From sequence record MT968995.1: a DNA stretch of 64,000 nt; one strand, written 5' to 3'. Source of the DNA: Escherichia phage vB_EcoM_WL-3. A program made the translations under genes and the position numbers. The notes under the pieces were generated by a model that did not search any database, was not told the origin of the DNA, and was given only the letters and a program-made list of their open reading frames with translations. Below are positions 5,552-20,364 of this stretch, in pieces; within the stretch, counting starts at the first letter, position 1; the number at the start of each line of letters is the position of its first letter.

Positions 5552-7063
5552 ATGACTGACATTAAAGTACATTTTTATGATTTTAGTCACGTGAGAATTG
5601 ATTGTGAAGAAAGTACATTTCATGAACTCCGTGATTTCTTTAGCTTTGAAGCTGATGGGTATCGTTTTAATCCGAAATACAAATATGGTCACTGGGATGG
5701 ACGAATCCGTCTTTTAGATTATAATCGCCTTCTTCCGTTCGGCTTAGTCGGGCAAATTAAAAAGTTCTGTGATAACTTTGGCTATAAAGCCTGGATTGAC
5801 CCACAAATTAACGAAAAAGAAGAATTATCAAGAAAAGATTTTGATGAATGGCTTTCTAAATTAGAAATCTATTCAGGAAATAAAAGAATTGAACCGCACT
5901 GGTATCAAAAAGATGCAGTGTTCGAAGGATTAGTTAATCGTCGTAGAATTCTTAATCTTCCAACATCCGCAGGTAAATCTTTAATTCAAGCTTTGCTTGC
6001 ACGTTATTATTTGGAAAATTATGAAGGTAAAATTCTTATCATTGTTCCAACAACTGCTCTGACAACTCAGATGGCTGATGACTTTGTTGACTATCGTTTA
6101 TTCAGTCATGCAATGATAAAGAAAATTGGTGGTGGAGCATCAAAAGATGATAAATATAAAAATGATGCACCAGTCGTTGTTGGTACATGGCAAACTGTAG
6201 TAAAACAACCAAAAGAATGGTTCTCACAGTTTGGAATGATGATGAATGATGAATGCCATCTTGCCACAGGAAAAAGTATTTCATCTATCATATCAGGTTT
6301 AAATAACTGCATGTTCAAATTTGGTCTATCAGGTTCATTACGTGATGGCAAAGCTAATATCATGCAGTATGTTGGAATGTTTGGTGAAATATTTAAGCCA
6401 GTAACGACTTCTAAATTAATGGAAGATGGACAAGTAACTGAGTTAAAAATTAATAGTATTTTTCTTCGCTATCCTGATGAGTTCACTACTAAATTAAAGG
6501 GAAAAACTTACCAAGAAGAAATAAAAATTATTACTGGGCTCAGTAAAAGAAATAAATGGATCGCTAAATTAGCTATTAAGCTTGCGCAAAAAGATGAAAA
6601 CGCTTTTGTCATGTTTAAGCATGTATCACATGGTAAAGCTATTTTCGATTTAATTAAAAATGAATACGATAAAGTTTATTACGTATCAGGAGAAGTTGAT
6701 ACTGAAACGCGCAATGTAATGAAAACCTTAGCTGAAAACGGTAAAGGAATAATTATAGTAGCTAGTTATGGTGTATTTTCTACTGGTATTTCAGTTAAAA
6801 ATCTGCATCACGTTGTTTTAGCGCACGGCGTTAAATCTAAAATTATTGTATTGCAAACAATAGGTCGTGTATTACGTAAGCATGGTTCTAAAACAATCGC
6901 AACGGTCTGGGACCTCATTGATGATTGCGGTGTTAAGCCAAAATCTGCTAATACGAAAAAGAAATACGTTCATTTGAACTATCTTTTAAAACACGGCATT
7001 GATCGTATTCAGCGCTACGCAGATGAAAAATTTAATTACGTAATGAAAACAGTTAATTTATAA
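5552..7063 (+). CDS. uvsW: UvsW DNA/RNA helicase (SF2)
   Basis: 503-aa ORF; Walker A-like LPTSAGKS and DEAD-box-like MMNDECH motifs; T4 position. Confidence 0.9.
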   Translation: MTDIKVHFYDFSHVRIDCEESTFHELRDFFSFEADGYRFNPKYKYGHWDGRIRLLDYNRLLPFGLVGQIKKFCDNFGYKAWIDPQINEKEELSRKDFDEWLSKLEIYSGNKRIEPHWYQKDAVFEGLVNRRRILNLPTSAGKSLIQALLARYYLENYEGKILIIVPTTALTTQMADDFVDYRLFSHAMIKKIGGGASKDDKYKNDAPVVVGTWQTVVKQPKEWFSQFGMMMNDECHLATGKSISSIISGLNNCMFKFGLSGSLRDGKANIMQYVGMFGEIFKPVTTSKLMEDGQVTELKINSIFLRYPDEFTTKLKGKTYQEEIKIITGLSKRNKWIAKLAIKLAQKDENAFVMFKHVSHGKAIFDLIKNEYDKVYYVSGEVDTETRNVMKTLAENGKGIIIVASYGVFSTGISVKNLHHVVLAHGVKSKIIVLQTIGRVLRKHGSKTIATVWDLIDDCGVKPKSANTKKKYVHLNYLLKHGIDRIQRYADEKFNYVMKTVNL

Positions 7064-15589: not shown

Positions 15590-15593
15590 CAAT

Positions 15594-15620
15594 GGGGACC
15601 GAAAGGTCCCCATGTTTTTA
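15594..15620 (+). terminator. Rho-independent terminator after gene 54
   Basis: ggggacc-gaaa-ggtcccc hairpin followed by TTTTT. Confidence 0.6.
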
Positions 15621-15908
15621 TTTACGGAATGAAATAAAAGCAGCAACTGAAGCAACTAAACTGTCTTCAATATAAACTTCAATTTTTACCGGAGCTTCTG
15701 ATTCAAATTTACCTGTTACTACACCCTGGAAAATGCTTTCAGTCTGTTCTGGCTTTGAAAAATTTTCAGAAGGAAAAATTCCGAACTTTTTATTTGTTCC
15801 AAAAATTTTGATAAATTCATCATAAACTGCTTCATTAAAAGCGTTATCAACAGGAATAACGCCTTCAACTACAAGTTCTTGACCTAAAAAGCGTAAAGAA
15901 GATTTCAT
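15618..15908 (-). CDS. alt.-3: Small early protein (alt.-3 position)
   Basis: 96-aa ORF with GAGGA RBS, downstream of an early promoter cassette. Confidence 0.6.
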   Translation of the reverse strand: MKSSLRFLGQELVVEGVIPVDNAFNEAVYDEFIKIFGTNKKFGIFPSENFSKPEQTESIFQGVVTGKFESEAPVKIEVYIEDSLVASVAAFISFRK

Positions 15909-15916
15909 TTTGTGTT

Positions 15917-15969
15917 CCTCATGTTATGTCAGTAAGATTATTATAACACAATACGAGGGACTTGTAAAC
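15917..15969 (-). promoter_or_regulatory. T4-type early promoter cassette upstream of alt.-3
   Basis: On the - strand: GTTTAC (-35) then TTATAAT (-10); near-identical copy at 31688-31740 upstream of alc. Confidence 0.5.
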
Positions 15970-18026
15970 TACATCTTGAACTTTTTAGACATTCCGTTGA
16001 TGTTAACCAAAGAAGCTAAGATTTGAGAAACTTCGTTTTCCTCTTCTTTTGATTCTTCTACAAGGAATTGATTAAACCCAGCCATTGGACGAACTTCACC
16101 AGTTTCCATCAGATGATCGCCATCATATACCGATTCTTCTAATTGTTCAGAAGGAGGAACGATTGTACCTTCGATTAAATACTTGTTATAAGCAGTTTCT
16201 TTCATCATGTACGTGCTCACTTTATTAATCTTCAGCAAAATTCCACGTGGTAAAATAACTTCAGCTTCTGACGTAAATCCTGATAAATGACCCGGAACGA
16301 TAACTTTGATTCGCTCAGCTCCTTTAATTACCATACCCACGCTAGTTTCAGCATCTTCATTCGCATAAGCAGAATGACTGCCCATATGCATCAAATCTTC
16401 TGCGTCAATTGAACCTTCTCCTTCACCAGAAAATACTGCACTGGAATCATCTAGAGCCATATAGTTTTTACCATACTCACCGAAGATATTTGGTTTAAGC
16501 GATGTGGATACGAAGTTCTTAAAATAGAACATTTTATTTTCAATATTATGACGTAAAGTTTTAAAGGTAACTTCTTGGCCACGGTAAAGCGTAGTTCCTG
16601 GAGGAAGAACTGATCCTTTGGCAAAAGCAGAATCCATCGTCTCGATGTGTTTAATAGCTCGTTCCATATATTCTTCACGAGTAGAATCCGGTTTACCTAA
16701 AAGGAACGAGTTCATTTCAACATATGAATCTGCGCAATAATCTTCAATTACATCAGACTCAGCCCGAGTTAATCCTTTTGGGGGTACTTCAGTACTTGCA
16801 TATTCATACGCTTGAGAAGCAGACTCATTAATCAATTTATAAATGCCATTCATGACAAATTGAATAATAGCTACCTTTTCATCTGGCGTGGCTTTAGAAC
16901 CTTTAACTAAATCATTGACAATTTTCTTAATAACATCAAAGCTATTAGAAATATTAATGTCAGCAAGATCGCTTAAAATTTTATCAGTTTTATAATCAAA
17001 AAATTCTTTATTCTTTAAATATTCTTGAGAACCTTGATGTGTTATATCGCTCTGCAGTCTGATAGACGGATCACGTAAACGTGCATGGGCCAATGCAATA
17101 TGATTTCGGAAGCTTTTTAGTTCATAATCACTAGATTTAAAACGAGAAGCACTCCTCATACCACCGATAGCTCCTTTGCCGAAGTTTGAACCAATCTGAA
17201 TAACGCCAGAGTTCATTGGTCCTTCTGCTTTATATACCGGAACTTTAGATTCAAACTCTTGATATTTCTTAGCAGCGAAACTATCGCCCTGAAGTGAAGC
17301 ATCGACAGTAGAGTATTGAGCTTGTGCTGCTAATCGACGACTAATTTTAGTTTTCTGAATAACAGCTTGATCCGTGCGCTTATCATTTTCTAAAGCAATA
17401 GAAGCGGCAACAGCAACAGCTTTAGGAACAGCATTACCTGTTTTAACGTCTACATAAACATCACCAACCTTTGATTCAACTTTTGTGAATAACTCAGTTG
17501 AAATAGGAGGTACACCTGGAATGTCTTCTAAATTGGCATTTTTACGGTAAACCATAATATATGCATACTTTTTATCGTAATCCCAGATTTCCTTTAAAAG
17601 AACATATCGACCTGCTCCTTTAGTACGTACTAAACGGTCAGCAATAACTTGAATTTGTCGAGCTGCGCCATTTGTTTTACTCTTTAGTACGCGGAACAGG
17701 CATGCGTCAATTTTATACTGTTTCATTGTTTGAAGAGCAGTATCAAAAACCGCATTAATAACACCAATTGGATTTCCACCCAAGTTTTTAAGTTTAACTA
17801 ATGATAGTTTCTCATTGACACCTATCATTACGATATGCATCATTTTATCGCCTGGCTTAACGTTTTTATTTGTATCACCGCCAGAGGTGTATGTGCAAAA
17901 TCTAAATCCAGGAAGCACGCTTTCTTCACCGGCTTGAATAGCAAAAATTTGAGGTATTTTATGCTTAGGATTTAAGTTAACAACCGGCGCCGAAGCGCCG
18001 TCAAATAATTCTGTAATAAGTTCCAT
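15969..18026 (-). CDS. Alt-family ADP-ribosyltransferase paralog
   Basis: 685-aa ORF; N-terminus MELITELFD shared with Alt; C-terminal ART motifs YRGQ, FVSTSL, EAEVILP. Confidence 0.8.
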   Translation of the reverse strand: MELITELFDGASAPVVNLNPKHKIPQIFAIQAGEESVLPGFRFCTYTSGGDTNKNVKPGDKMMHIVMIGVNEKLSLVKLKNLGGNPIGVINAVFDTALQTMKQYKIDACLFRVLKSKTNGAARQIQVIADRLVRTKGAGRYVLLKEIWDYDKKYAYIMVYRKNANLEDIPGVPPISTELFTKVESKVGDVYVDVKTGNAVPKAVAVAASIALENDKRTDQAVIQKTKISRRLAAQAQYSTVDASLQGDSFAAKKYQEFESKVPVYKAEGPMNSGVIQIGSNFGKGAIGGMRSASRFKSSDYELKSFRNHIALAHARLRDPSIRLQSDITHQGSQEYLKNKEFFDYKTDKILSDLADINISNSFDVIKKIVNDLVKGSKATPDEKVAIIQFVMNGIYKLINESASQAYEYASTEVPPKGLTRAESDVIEDYCADSYVEMNSFLLGKPDSTREEYMERAIKHIETMDSAFAKGSVLPPGTTLYRGQEVTFKTLRHNIENKMFYFKNFVSTSLKPNIFGEYGKNYMALDDSSAVFSGEGEGSIDAEDLMHMGSHSAYANEDAETSVGMVIKGAERIKVIVPGHLSGFTSEAEVILPRGILLKINKVSTYMMKETAYNKYLIEGTIVPPSEQLEESVYDGDHLMETGEVRPMAGFNQFLVEESKEEENEVSQILASLVNINGMSKKFKM

Positions 18027-18029
18027 GAT

Positions 18030-20126
18030 TTATCCTTGAACGAACTTGTAAGGCATGTTTGTAATATCTATGCAAGACGCAATAATTCCGAGAGATGATT
18101 CTGCTTTCTGTTTAACATTTGATGAAACAAATGATGCAAAGTCAACTCTGTCTTCTATTTCAATATCACCTGTCATTGCAACTACTTCACCAGTTTCCAT
18201 TAAATGGTCTCCATCATAAATTACTGATTCGGTGAGTTCTTCTGTAGTCATAACTTCAGATTGAATGAGTTTTGTATTATTAGATGTTGTTCCGTCATTA
18301 TTAGAAGCATCAGTTATTTTATTAACTTTGACCATCAATCCGCGCGGTAGAATAACTTCAGCTTCTGTTGCTATTCCGAGACTTCCTGGATATACAACAT
18401 TAACTTTATGAGCTCCATCAATTGCCCATCCTATTTGAACTTTAACGTATTCAGGATTTTCTTTATACGCTCTTATTTCGTTTGGATTAATAGTTATTCC
18501 TTCTTCATTTTTATCAACTGTCAATTCATTACGAGCTTCTGGTTCTAAAAGACCAATACCAGCATGTGTAATTCCAAAACGTCCAAAAATGATAGGAGTT
18601 AAAGAAGTAGATACAAAATTTCTGAAATAGAACACTTTATTTTTAACTAGTGCTTCGTATATAGGAGCAGTCATACTTTGAGCACGATAAACTGTAATGC
18701 CTTCTGGTATACGGTCACCATTTTCAAAAGCTGAATCTAAGTTATTTATAGCAGATTCAATTTCTTTTTCACTCATTACATCATATCGTTCTGGATTGTA
18801 ACGACCCAAAAGAAGATTATTGATGTCAGTATATCCTGAACCACAATACTCTCTAATGCCGCGCTTTTGTGATGGAGTATATTTAGAACCATCACGGGCA
18901 ATAGTAATATCAATCATTGGACCTGCACCAATTCCAGAAAAACTATAAATCATTCGTTTGAGGAATTTAGTTTTTGCTGCGTTCCAGGAATTTTTAGTTA
19001 TTTCTTCCCAGACTTCATCTGGCTGTCCTTTACGGGTTTTATTATGTTTATCAAGCCAAGTATCTTTATATTCTTCAAAGAATTTATTAACAGCTGCTGC
19101 GTATTTCTCTAAACATTTTATTGAAGTAGTTGGTTCATTTTTAATCGCATTAAGAATTACATCTTTAATTTTTTCAGAAACTTCATTAACCTCACTTTTT
19201 GAAAAGAATTTATAGTCATAGTGAAGTTCATCTGCGGTTCCTTCGGCAATGATTTTTGCTGCCTTAGTTTTAGAAGCTAATGAATTAATTCCAAGCTTCA
19301 TTTCTTCTGCTTCGGGAATTAAAGGAGCTGTAGCAGGTTTATTGAAATTAGCTGCAGTAGATTCATACTTCTGGAATAATTCGCTTTCAAATCTAGAAGA
19401 TTCTAATGATTGACTTTGCGCAATTGCTCTACGGGAAATTTTAACTTTAACAATAACAGCTTGGTCAGAACGTTTATCATTTTCTTGTGCAATAGATGCT
19501 GCAATTGCCTCATTTTTAGTTACTTGAGCTCCAGTATCTTTATTGATATAAACATCGCCGACTTTCGATTCAACTTTAGTAAAGAGCTCGGTACTAATTT
19601 CCGGAACTCCTGGAATGTCTTCTAGTGATACATTTTTGCGATGTATAAGAATATATGCATACTTTTTATCGTAATCCCAGAGTTCCTTAAGAAGGACGTA
19701 TCTGCCACCTGAACGACTACGAATAAGTCTATCAGCAATAACTTGAATTTGTCGAGCTTGACCAGCAGTTTTAGACTTAAGAATACGGAGCATACAGGCA
19801 TCAATTTTATACTGACGCATCGTCTGCATTGCAACAGTAAAAACTGAATTGATATAATTAATTGGGCTTGGACCGAGACCTTTTAATTTAGCAATTGAAC
19901 CTTTAGCAGTTAATGTAAAAGGAACAATATGCATCATTTTATCGCCCATTTTTAAATCGCGATTAGTATCACCTCCAGATGTATAGGTACATAAACGAAA
20001 GCCTGGTTGTTCAATTGCGTCATCGACATGAACTGAAAAAATTTGTGGTATTTTCTTCTTTGGATTTAAGTTTGTAATCGGAAGAGTAGTATCTTCGTCA
20101 AATAATTCTGTAATGAGTTCCATCAT
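18030..20126 (-). CDS. alt: Alt, ADP-ribosyltransferase packaged in the head
   Basis: 698-aa ORF (alternative ATG at 20123); motifs YRAQ, FVSTSL, EAEVILP; T4 position next to gene 30. Confidence 0.85.
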   Translation of the reverse strand: MMELITELFDEDTTLPITNLNPKKKIPQIFSVHVDDAIEQPGFRLCTYTSGGDTNRDLKMGDKMMHIVPFTLTAKGSIAKLKGLGPSPINYINSVFTVAMQTMRQYKIDACMLRILKSKTAGQARQIQVIADRLIRSRSGGRYVLLKELWDYDKKYAYILIHRKNVSLEDIPGVPEISTELFTKVESKVGDVYINKDTGAQVTKNEAIAASIAQENDKRSDQAVIVKVKISRRAIAQSQSLESSRFESELFQKYESTAANFNKPATAPLIPEAEEMKLGINSLASKTKAAKIIAEGTADELHYDYKFFSKSEVNEVSEKIKDVILNAIKNEPTTSIKCLEKYAAAVNKFFEEYKDTWLDKHNKTRKGQPDEVWEEITKNSWNAAKTKFLKRMIYSFSGIGAGPMIDITIARDGSKYTPSQKRGIREYCGSGYTDINNLLLGRYNPERYDVMSEKEIESAINNLDSAFENGDRIPEGITVYRAQSMTAPIYEALVKNKVFYFRNFVSTSLTPIIFGRFGITHAGIGLLEPEARNELTVDKNEEGITINPNEIRAYKENPEYVKVQIGWAIDGAHKVNVVYPGSLGIATEAEVILPRGLMVKVNKITDASNNDGTTSNNTKLIQSEVMTTEELTESVIYDGDHLMETGEVVAMTGDIEIEDRVDFASFVSSNVKQKAESSLGIIASCIDITNMPYKFVQG

Positions 20127-20146: not shown

Positions 20147-20154
20147 TATTTATA
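20147..20154 (-). promoter_or_regulatory. Late promoter (TATAAATA) for alt
   Basis: TATAAATA on the - strand about 20 nt upstream of the alt ATG, followed by AGAGAGGA RBS. Confidence 0.5.
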
Positions 20155-20162
20155 AAATTAAA

Positions 20163-20174
20163 GGCCCGAAGGCC
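20163..20174. terminator. Palindromic hairpin between the 62-aa ORF and alt
   Basis: ggcc-cgaa-ggcc hairpin with flanking A/T runs. Confidence 0.4.
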
Positions 20175-20175
20175 T

Positions 20176-20364
20176 TTAATAATCTAATGGTAAGAGAGTA
20201 CGGTATATTTCAAACTTTGGCCCTTTTTCATAGGCATCAAATGTTTCTGTAAATTTATTATAAGCATATGCATCTACAAATTCGAGAACGATTTGTGATA
20301 CAGAAGTAGAAACATCTCCACCTTCTTTTTGAGCCACGACAATTGTTTCTAAGTAAGCTTTCAT
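20176..20364 (-). CDS. Small acidic protein between gene 30 and alt
   Basis: 62-aa ORF with ATGA overlap with the gene 30 stop. Confidence 0.5.
   Translation of the reverse strand: MKAYLETIVVAQKEGGDVSTSVSQIVLEFVDAYAYNKFTETFDAYEKGPKFEIYRTLLPLDY

Follow-up and report, generated by a model that had tools for sequence, protein, structure and literature searches.

A tandem pair of predicted Alt-family ADP-ribosyltransferase genes in Escherichia phage vB_EcoM_WL-3, a common arrangement among its relatives

The Alt protein of phage T4 is known from the literature to ADP-ribosylate arginine in protein substrates, with NAD+ as the donor. T4 injects this toxin-like enzyme together with its DNA, and host proteins are modified as a result. 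About 40 copies of gpAlt are present per head, and gp21 trims its N-terminus (PMC9958956). Omics data for T4 class the alt gene as late (PMC9697503). The T4 proteins ModA and ModB are synthesized early within the cell; they are not packaged (PMC5512222). Like the toxins Vis, C3, iota Ia, CDTa, VIP2, and Certhrax, they share the catalytic fold and the R / S-T-S / E-x-E motifs with the proteins described here. However, ModA, ModB, and the bacterial ART toxins have neither the Tevenvirinae N-domain nor the helical middle domain, and no MELITE propeptide. Duplications of alt were noted by Nolan et al. 2006, including ORF187c of Aeromonas phage 44RR (PMC1524935). In JS98 (Dhakavirus), tandem full-length paralogues at the same locus are named alta and altb. 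In Bas37 (KarlGJung; BASEL), the genes are named "Alt" and "Alt2".

We analyzed a window of 64,000 nucleotides from vB_EcoM_WL-3 (MT968995.1), which belongs to a Tequatrovirus. The ORF list agrees with the original prediction of two intact minus-strand ORFs, at 18030-20126 (698 aa) and 15969-18026 (685 aa). The pair follows a late promoter on the leftward strand and lies between DNA ligase (gene 30)/alt.1 and alt.-3/gene 54. The genes considered are the following.

18030..20123, minus strand: alt (AltA), 697 aa from the second ATG; orthologue of T4 Alt, a different allele
15969..18026, minus strand: alt2 (AltB), 685 aa; intact form of the gene seen in T4 as alt.-1 and alt.-2
15618..15908, minus strand: alt.-3 homologue, 96 aa, 98% identical to T4 Alt.-3; downstream neighbor, outside the ART pair

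ARAGORN and Rfam found no RNA genes across the whole window. Both proteins have the expected N-terminus MELITELFD; the 698-aa ORF itself begins with MMELITE. A GAGG sequence (20132-20129) lies 2 nt from the first ATG of alt and 5 nt from the second, and T4 Alt is annotated from MELITE. Considering this spacing and this annotation, the true start of alt is probably 20123, which gives 697 aa.

That the two proteins are paralogs was borne out by BLASTP, with 41% identity over 719 columns (E = 4e-160), far beyond chance. The phrog_802 profile ('Alt-like RNA polymerase ADP-ribosyltransferase') matches both end to end: residues 1-696 of Alt (E = 6.6e-273) and 1-685 of Alt2 (E = 5.6e-254). Likewise, PF03496 scores 128.3 bits for Alt and 69.8 bits for Alt2, above its gathering cut-off of 23.4 bits. 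Precomputed annotations assign PF26846 (Tevenvirinae_ADPRT) to homologues with up to 98% identity to the window proteins. These matches support the assignment of both predicted proteins to the Alt-family ARTs of the Straboviridae.

The original prediction implied that this arrangement was new, and in this respect it did not hold. Within the genus, most phages have the pair, and earlier annotations already cover it. T2 and T6 carry it, as do about 400 phage records. Of 498 matching phage records, 401 contain a full-length alt2, and a protein at least 95% identical to Alt2 is encoded in 396 records. The tandem pair is confirmed as a real, ordinary, and previously annotated feature. The Bas37 'ADP-ribosyltransferase Alt2' (bas37_0032 / QXV82013.1) is 98.0% identical to the window protein. 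This gene and its T2 and T6 equivalents have the length, position, and 3-nt junction of the window alt2, so they are the same gene in sister phages. The window Alt is also the Bas37/T2/T6 allele, unlike that of T4. About 20% of the relatives, T4 among them, have no intact copy of alt2, which indicates that the gene is dispensable in some backgrounds. Isolates that keep a remnant only include T4, ACG-C40, IME537, CE1, slur14, Lutter, and SG1.

The R-S-E signatures were recovered in both proteins: VYRAQ, FVSTSL, and TEAEVILP in Alt, and LYRGQ, FVSTSL, and SEAEVILP in Alt2. Both also carry the tail motif YDGDHLMETGEV. The catalytic set consists of R480, S505-T506-S507, and E587/E589 in Alt, and of R482, S507-T508-S509, and E587/E589 in Alt2. 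In a 24-sequence family alignment, the arginine, both serines, and both glutamates are invariant, and the threonine is nearly so. The Y-D-G-D..E.GE positions are invariant or nearly so. A loss of catalytic residues in the second protein, named beforehand as one outcome that would undo the two-enzyme reading, was not seen on alignment. E-x-E, and not Q-x-E, is the mark of arginine-specific ARTs (the C3/iota/Vis clade). HMMER aligned the E-A-E of these proteins with the E-Y-E of CDTa. The structural models contain an ART fold in both proteins, and the closest structural match of the modeled domains is the NAD+-arginine ART Vis. The ART domain of Alt2 was modeled confidently. The models were built from 24-sequence alignments and have a mean pLDDT of ~75 and a pTM of 0.57-0.60, values at which the relative arrangement of the domains is not reliable. 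A sequence search of the PDB returned no solved Alt structure and matched only distant ART toxins. Motifs and models support the prediction that both proteins belong to the R-S-E clade, as arginine-specific mono-ARTs of the C3/iota/Vis type.

Both proteins present the same four-part build: the MELITE propeptide with an alpha/beta N-domain, a helical middle domain, the R-S-ExE ART domain, and the YDGDHLMETGEV tail. The predicted domains are placed as follows.

19419..20123, minus strand: AltA propeptide MELITE and conserved alpha/beta domain, aa 1-235 (PF26846 on close homologues)
18879..19391, minus strand: AltA all-helical middle domain, aa ~245-415, hypervariable (model, pLDDT 80-92)
18243..18875, minus strand: AltA ART catalytic domain, aa ~417-627 (profile and structural matches)
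17322..18026, minus strand: AltB propeptide MELITE and conserved alpha/beta domain, aa 1-235 (alignment and model)
16782..17294, minus strand: AltB all-helical middle domain, aa ~245-415 (model, pLDDT 85-92)
16152..16778, minus strand: AltB ART catalytic domain, aa ~417-625 (profile and structural matches)

The N-domain of AltA (model pLDDT 65-87) is ~69% identical to that of Alt2, and across aa 1-240 AltA matches T4 Alt with 100% identity. Its sequence and profile gave no meaningful match in the PDB or in a Pfam set without PF26846. As had been expected, the middle is the most divergent part, with 15-20% identity in alignment columns 241-440. Over the middle domain itself, AltA is 12% identical to AltB and 34% to JS98 alta; AltB is 44% identical to JS98 altb. 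A second variable patch between Alt and Alt2 is found within the ART domain (columns 561-600). These differences suggest that Alt and Alt2 may act on different targets.

T4 Alt (NP_049811, 682 aa) has the same locus, late promoter, RBS, MELITE, and four-part architecture as the window Alt. The two are 70% identical overall, but only 14-33% in the middle domain (32% over aa ~245-415). An origin of this divergent middle of T4 Alt from Alt2 was rejected, given an identity of just 5-12% there.

The I-T-E tripeptide had been read as a prohead-protease site. For T4 Alt this is supported by record X15811, where the mature peptide is annotated without the first 6 residues. The first nine residues of Alt2, including MELITE, are identical to those of Alt. 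By analogy, Alt2 may also be packaged and injected. A literature search on Alt2, and on Tequatrovirus virion proteomics with ARTs, found no Alt2 virion data or biochemistry. We also considered a C-terminal gp21 site at H-L-M-E in YDGDHLMETGEV and dropped it as unsupported. The two proteins contain 10 and 7 sites of the form [LI]xE, respectively, and the mature T4 Alt peptide of X15811 extends to the C-terminus.

The junction was found as described. The stop of alt (18032-18030) is followed by a 3-nt gap and the ATG of alt2 (18026-18024), reading ...CAAGGA TAA ATC ATG.... It is identical in T2, T6, Bas37, and PP01, and also at the alt/alt.-1 junction of T4. From its geometry, translational coupling of alt2 to alt would be expected. 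The candidate signals around alt are the following.

20160..20177, minus strand: GC-rich hairpin AAAGGCC-TTCG-GGCCTTT followed by a T-rich run, terminator-like, read directly
20147..20154, minus strand: T4-type late promoter box TATAAATA upstream of alt, by sequence match
18033..18037, minus strand: AAGGA Shine-Dalgarno for alt2, within the last alt codons, 6 nt before the alt2 ATG

The TATAAATA box occupies the same place in T4, T2, T6, Bas37, and PP01, and X15811 annotates a late promoter and RBS for alt. The hairpin overlaps the alt.1 stop just upstream of this promoter and is kept in T2 and T6; a consensus terminator scan did not include it among its calls. Promoter scans of the window found no early promoter belonging to alt2. 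Another TATAAATA box, at 18743-18750, was considered as an internal late promoter for alt2. It is missing from PP01 and T4, the number of such boxes in the window is that expected by chance, and this candidate was not supported.

Whether T4 has an intact second copy had been left open, and the comparison answers that it has none. Its alt.-1 (NP_049810) is 95% identical to residues 1-56 of the window Alt2, and its alt.-2 (NP_049809) is 98% identical to residues 62-116. The frame of the T4 remnant is broken after approximately codon 56 by a frameshift, whereas the window alt2 is intact. A further segment is missing.

15989..17678, minus strand: alt2 segment missing in T4, ~1.69 kb (blastn block boundaries and junction sequences)

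In T4 this deletion is bounded by the short repeats CTAAAGAGT and CTAAAAAGT. In the T4 record, alt.-1 and alt.-2 are explained by an old duplication that copied the first part of alt. They are best read, from these alignments, as the wreck of a full-length alt2 and not as a partial duplication. The comparison indicates that T4 lost alt2 via a frameshift and a deletion.

The pair was also compared with that of JS98. Alta is 47% identical to the window Alt and altb 48% to Alt2; the cross pairs reach 32%. The ART domains follow the lineages, with 58-60% identity between orthologues and 34-38% between paralogues. Conversely, the N-domains group by genome: the two N-domains of one genome share 65-69% identity, against 42-46% for orthologues. 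These values indicate that the Alt and Alt2 lineages are older than the Tequatrovirus/Dhakavirus split and that their N-domains evolve in concert. Natural Alt/Alt2 chimeras present breakpoints at approximately aa 50, 100, 150-200, and 225, so that the switch from Alt to Alt2 falls inside the N-domain. Some came from metagenome contigs, and assembly artefacts were considered. A single chimeric gene, as one contiguous match, recurs in the complete genomes of the cultured phages PST (Yersinia phage), ECML-134, and SCS4, and for this reason the chimeric proteins are probably real. Among five phages, dN/dS is 0.02-0.07 for both genes (0.035-0.067 for alt2). Such ratios indicate that both are under purifying selection.

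Transposon data for Bas37 give a hint about function. Alt2 has a saturation of 0.707 (class 'Intermediate') and a mean of 44.5 reads, Alt has 0.916 ('Non-essential') and 203.6 reads, and most neighboring non-essential genes have ~140-395 (HIDEN-SEQ preprint, 10.1101/2025.11.20.689424). Insertions in alt2 are ~4.5-fold depleted compared with alt. This suggests that disruption of Alt2 costs fitness in Bas37, although the low counts could have other causes, such as harmful truncated products. The authors of the preprint do not discuss these counts (10.1101/2025.11.20.689424). In the same work, evasion of Mokosh type I was restored by T4 Alt and not by Bas37 Alt (10.1101/2025.11.20.689424). Allelic differences in the Alt family therefore change function.

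We consider it probable that the locus encodes two functional Alt-family arginine-specific mono-ADP-ribosyltransferases, which are produced late, packaged, and injected, and which have different substrate sets. By analogy with T4 Alt, alt and alt2 would be transcribed late as one message from the TATAAATA promoter. Ribosomes terminating 3 nt upstream, or entering via the AAGGA site, would translate alt2. By way of the shared N-terminal module, Alt and Alt2 would enter the prohead core and be cut there by the gp21 protease after I-T-E. Both would then be injected with the DNA and, using NAD+, would modify host proteins by ADP-ribosylation of arginines, ahead of any phage gene expression. Alt and Alt2 would owe distinct substrate sets to their diverged helical domains and to the variable insert of the ART domain.

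Three other explanations were weighed against this one. The case for packaging of Alt2 draws on a single thing, the similarity of its N-terminal module. Alt2 might then be an active ART that is neither packaged in the head nor injected and that acts late in the producing cell, from within, like ModA/ModB. We find this unlikely. The match to Alt over the first nine residues includes the cleaved MELITE, and the 69% identical N-domain is kept like that of the co-resident Alt by recombination. This homogenization within a genome is consistent with a common phage-specific partner, for instance the prohead core. The gene also follows a late promoter, and scans of the window showed no early promoter belonging to it. 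A redundant duplicate in the course of being lost, still open here and without its own function, seems improbable to us in view of the low dN/dS of alt2 and of the orthologues that persist as a distinct lineage in a second genus. Intact copies in ~80% of the records, with invariant catalytic residues, and the depletion of Bas37 insertions also speak against it. Nevertheless, T4 and other isolates keep only a remnant, PST and ECML-134 carry a single chimera, and T4 grows well without alt2, as such a duplicate would predict.

Alt2 could instead serve Alt chiefly in a structural or regulatory way, for instance in a heteromer or as an internal protein that fills the head, with its ART activity secondary or lost. 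The genes are tightly coupled in layout and have the N-domain and the YDGDHLMETGEV motif in common. Moreover, alt-minus T4 packages more DNA (PMC3012670), and Alt-type proteins therefore occupy head volume. Yet the full set of NAD-binding and catalytic residues is invariant in both lineages, the ART domain models confidently, and viable phages exist that have only Alt (T4) or one chimera (PST). We regard such a role as hardly probable at all.

As annotation, this adds little: the pair is already named and is present in hundreds of public genomes. A bolder reading, possible but held here with reservation, is that Alt2 is a second injected effector, anciently separate, with its own host targets and perhaps a role against host defenses, and that it weighs more than Alt in T-even fitness. 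The old, separately conserved ART lineages together with the exchanged N-domains argue for two distinct enzymes with one delivery module. The homogenized N-domain would then be a common 'ticket' into the head. If this is true, the standard picture of immediate-early host takeover is short of one enzyme, because T4 lost alt2. Public transposon data carry a hint that alt2 is the costlier of the two genes to disrupt. For the full set of injected ARTs, and for differences in defense evasion among T-even phages, T2, T6, or Bas37 would be better subjects than T4.

Downstream of the pair, two further candidate signals were observed.

15940..15968, minus strand: sigma-70/T4-early-type promoter, TTTACA, 17-nt spacer, TG-extended TATAAT (consensus match only, 11/12)
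15592..15613, both strands: bidirectional hairpin terminator in the alt.-3/gene 54 interval, 9-bp stem with 6 GC pairs

The predicted promoter sits just past the alt2 stop and presumably drives alt.-3. The hairpin is likely the 3' end of the leftward transcripts.

The original prediction placed two adjoining minus-strand genes of the Alt ADP-ribosyltransferase (ART) family in the window. Both the observation and the identification are correct, and the six-frame ORF list gives identical coordinates.

18030..20126, minus strand, alt ORF, 698 aa from the first ATG
15969..18026, minus strand, alt2 ORF, 685 aa

The products, Alt and Alt2, are paralogs as claimed (41% identity over the whole length, E = 4e-160), and every quoted motif was found in the two proteins. 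The 3-nt gap and the AAGGA ribosome-binding site also stand. The junction is CAAGGA-TAA-ATC-ATG: the alt stop (18032-18030), three bases and the alt2 ATG (18026-18024), with AAGGA 6 nt upstream of this ATG. The 5' side of alt presents a GC hairpin, a T4 late-promoter box TATAAATA (20147-20154) and GAGG. The distance from this GAGG to the ATG is 2 nt for the first candidate start and 5 nt for the second. Because of this spacing, and since T4 Alt is annotated from MELITE, alt most likely starts at 20123 and encodes 697 aa. A second TATAAATA box lies within alt at 18743-18750 (minus strand), about 720 nt upstream of alt2. T2, T6 and Bas37 have this box as well, PP01 and T4 do not. It is probably due to chance, since such boxes are as frequent in the window as expected.

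Both enzymes are intact in sequence. For PF03496, Alt scores 128 bits and Alt2 70 bits (Pfam cut-off 23.4), and each matches the Alt PHROG from end to end. An alignment of 24 members, drawn from the two lineages and including several alleles, shows no variation at the catalytic Arg, the two Ser of S-T-S, the two Glu of E-x-E and several NAD-site residues, and almost none at the Thr of S-T-S. The catalytic residues are present in Alt2. E-x-E, not Q-x-E, is the arginine-specific signature of this ART clade. The AlphaFold models (mean pLDDT 75, pTM 0.57-0.60) agree in layout between the two proteins, which run from an N-terminal alpha/beta domain through a linker, an all-helical domain and the ART domain to a disordered tail. 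For alt, pairwise dN/dS among the window, Bas37, T2, T6 and PP01 was 0.021-0.066, and for alt2 it was 0.035-0.067. In these phages, neither gene is undergoing decay.

In the Dhakavirus JS98, alta and altb occupy this locus in tandem, and the stop of one gene is immediately followed by the ATG of the next. Overall identity is 47% between JS98 alta and the window Alt, 48% between altb and Alt2, and 32% for the cross pairs. The N-domain shows a pattern opposite to that of the ART domain and the helical middle.

Identity by domain, window and JS98
ART domain: orthologue pairs 58-60%; within-genome paralogues 34-38% (cross-lineage)
Helical middle: orthologue pairs 34-44%; within-genome paralogues 8-16% (cross-lineage)
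N-domain: orthologue pairs 42-46%; within-genome paralogues 65-69%

By these values, the effector parts of Alt and Alt2 are old lineages, conserved separately, and the N-terminal module is under concerted evolution. The latter fits with recombinant chimeras and with a shared phage-specific partner. Duplications of alt in RB49, 44RR and T4 were already reported by Nolan et al. 2006 (PMC1524935).

The window Alt is the orthologue of T4 Alt, with 70% identity overall. Residues 1-240 are essentially identical (100%). In contrast, the helical middle (window 18879-19391; about 6200-6770 in the T4 locus) shows 14-33%, the ART domain 55-68% and the tail 78-90%. Two further alleles (P0016 and P0017) have 63-64% overall identity. 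The alt orthologue exists as sharply different alleles, with cassette-like replacement of the presumed target-recognition part. Alt of the BASEL phage Bas37 (KarlGJung) is 99.0% identical to the window protein, and those of T2, T6 and PP01 are 98-99% identical. For Alt2, the Bas37 protein annotated 'ADP-ribosyltransferase Alt2' has 98.0% identity, and the T2 and T6 copies 97%.

T4 alt.-1 is 95% identical to Alt2 residues 1-56, and alt.-2 is 98% identical to residues 62-116; with T4 Alt, they share only 56-62%. In the DNA alignment, T4 lacks window 15989-17678. The deletion junction sits in a short repeat (CTAAAGAGT / CTAAAAAGT), and the remnant is additionally frame-shifted past about codon 56. 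T4 therefore holds the wreck of a full-length alt2. The annotations 'old duplication of the first part of gene alt' (T4) and 'apparent insertion in alt.-2' (T6) are one fact described from the T4 side.

The ART region (4.8 kb query) matches 537 phage records, of which 314 span at least 80% of its length; the best matches are Tequatroviruses with 97-98% identity. Full-length alt2 is present in 401 of 498 matching records; by tblastn, 396 records have a product that is at least 95% identical. The whole Alt family extends to 1222 phage records, with hosts including Escherichia, Klebsiella, Acinetobacter and Aeromonas, and forms 57 clusters (50% clustering, E <= 1e-30). The tandem is the normal state of the genus and is already annotated, its outline known since 2006. 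The spans of the matches give at least five locus layouts.

Layouts of the alt locus
697-aa Alt + Alt2: window, T2, T6, Bas37
T4-type Alt + Alt2: G10400, TOPO13, PYps10T, KNP5, SH7
T4-type Alt + remnant: T4, ACG-C40, IME537, CE1
697-aa Alt + remnant: slur14, Lutter, SG1
Single chimeric gene: Yersinia phage PST (KF208315), ECML-134 (JX128259), SCS4; also metagenome contigs L006 (5001-7061) and L007 (5001-7061)

The chimeras have an Alt-identical N-terminus and continue as Alt2 from about residue 50, 100, 150-200 or 225. On the contigs they stand alone, with alt.1 on one side and alt.-3 on the other. They look as if the coding regions of the two N-domains had recombined unequally, an event that would remove most of alt.

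T4 alt is expressed late (PMC9697503), and the T4 Alt record gives a late promoter, a ribosome-binding site and the removal of six N-terminal residues (X15811). About 40 copies are in the head core, trimmed by the prohead protease gp21 (PMC9958956). The injected protein ADP-ribosylates the RNA polymerase alpha subunit and other proteins. The T4 control sequences and N-terminus recur at the window alt, and Alt2 has the propeptide and N-domain in common with Alt. Our literature search for Alt2 found no biochemical study and no virion data. The sole experimental data found come from the HIDEN-SEQ preprint on Bas37 in E. coli K-12, which does not identify targets (10.1101/2025.11.20.689424). There, alt2 is 'Intermediate' (116 of 164 TA sites hit, mean 44.5 normalised reads) and alt 'Non-essential' (164 of 179, 203.6 reads); most neighbouring non-essential genes have about 140-395 reads. 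The same work reports that T4 Alt aids evasion of Mokosh type I and that Bas37 Alt is no substitute. From these data, alt2 seems to be expressed and to matter, and function seems to change with sequence differences inside the family. A pair of head-delivered ARTs with different substrates is the best-supported reading, with packaging resting on homology and specificity on the divergence patterns.

The gene order in the window (48, 54, alt.-3, the two ART genes, alt.1, 30 (DNA ligase)) is that of T4. The surroundings of alt.-3 present these features.

15940-15968, minus strand, extended -10 promoter near consensus (TTTACA, 17-nt spacer, TG-TATAAT), beginning at the alt2 stop codon and pointing to alt.-3
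15618-15908, minus strand, alt.-3 homologue, 98% identical to T4 Alt.-3
15592-15613, strong bidirectional hairpin terminator between alt.-3 and gene 54

T4 mutants with a C-terminal extension of Alt.-3 evade the CmdTAC defence system, with CmdA degradation blocked (bioRxiv 10.1101/2024.02.24.581662). In the Bas37 transposon data, the orthologue bas37_0031 is depleted on the uropathogenic strain CFT073 (log2FC -2.70, adjusted p 0.02). The alt.-3 gene may be a natural anti-defence gene.

The 64 kb window contains no tRNA genes and no Rfam families at gathering score. Negative GC skew covers about 16-46 kb and 56-64 kb; the skew is positive, weakly to moderately so, at about 4-16 kb and 46-56 kb. 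This agrees with leftward versus rightward transcription blocks.
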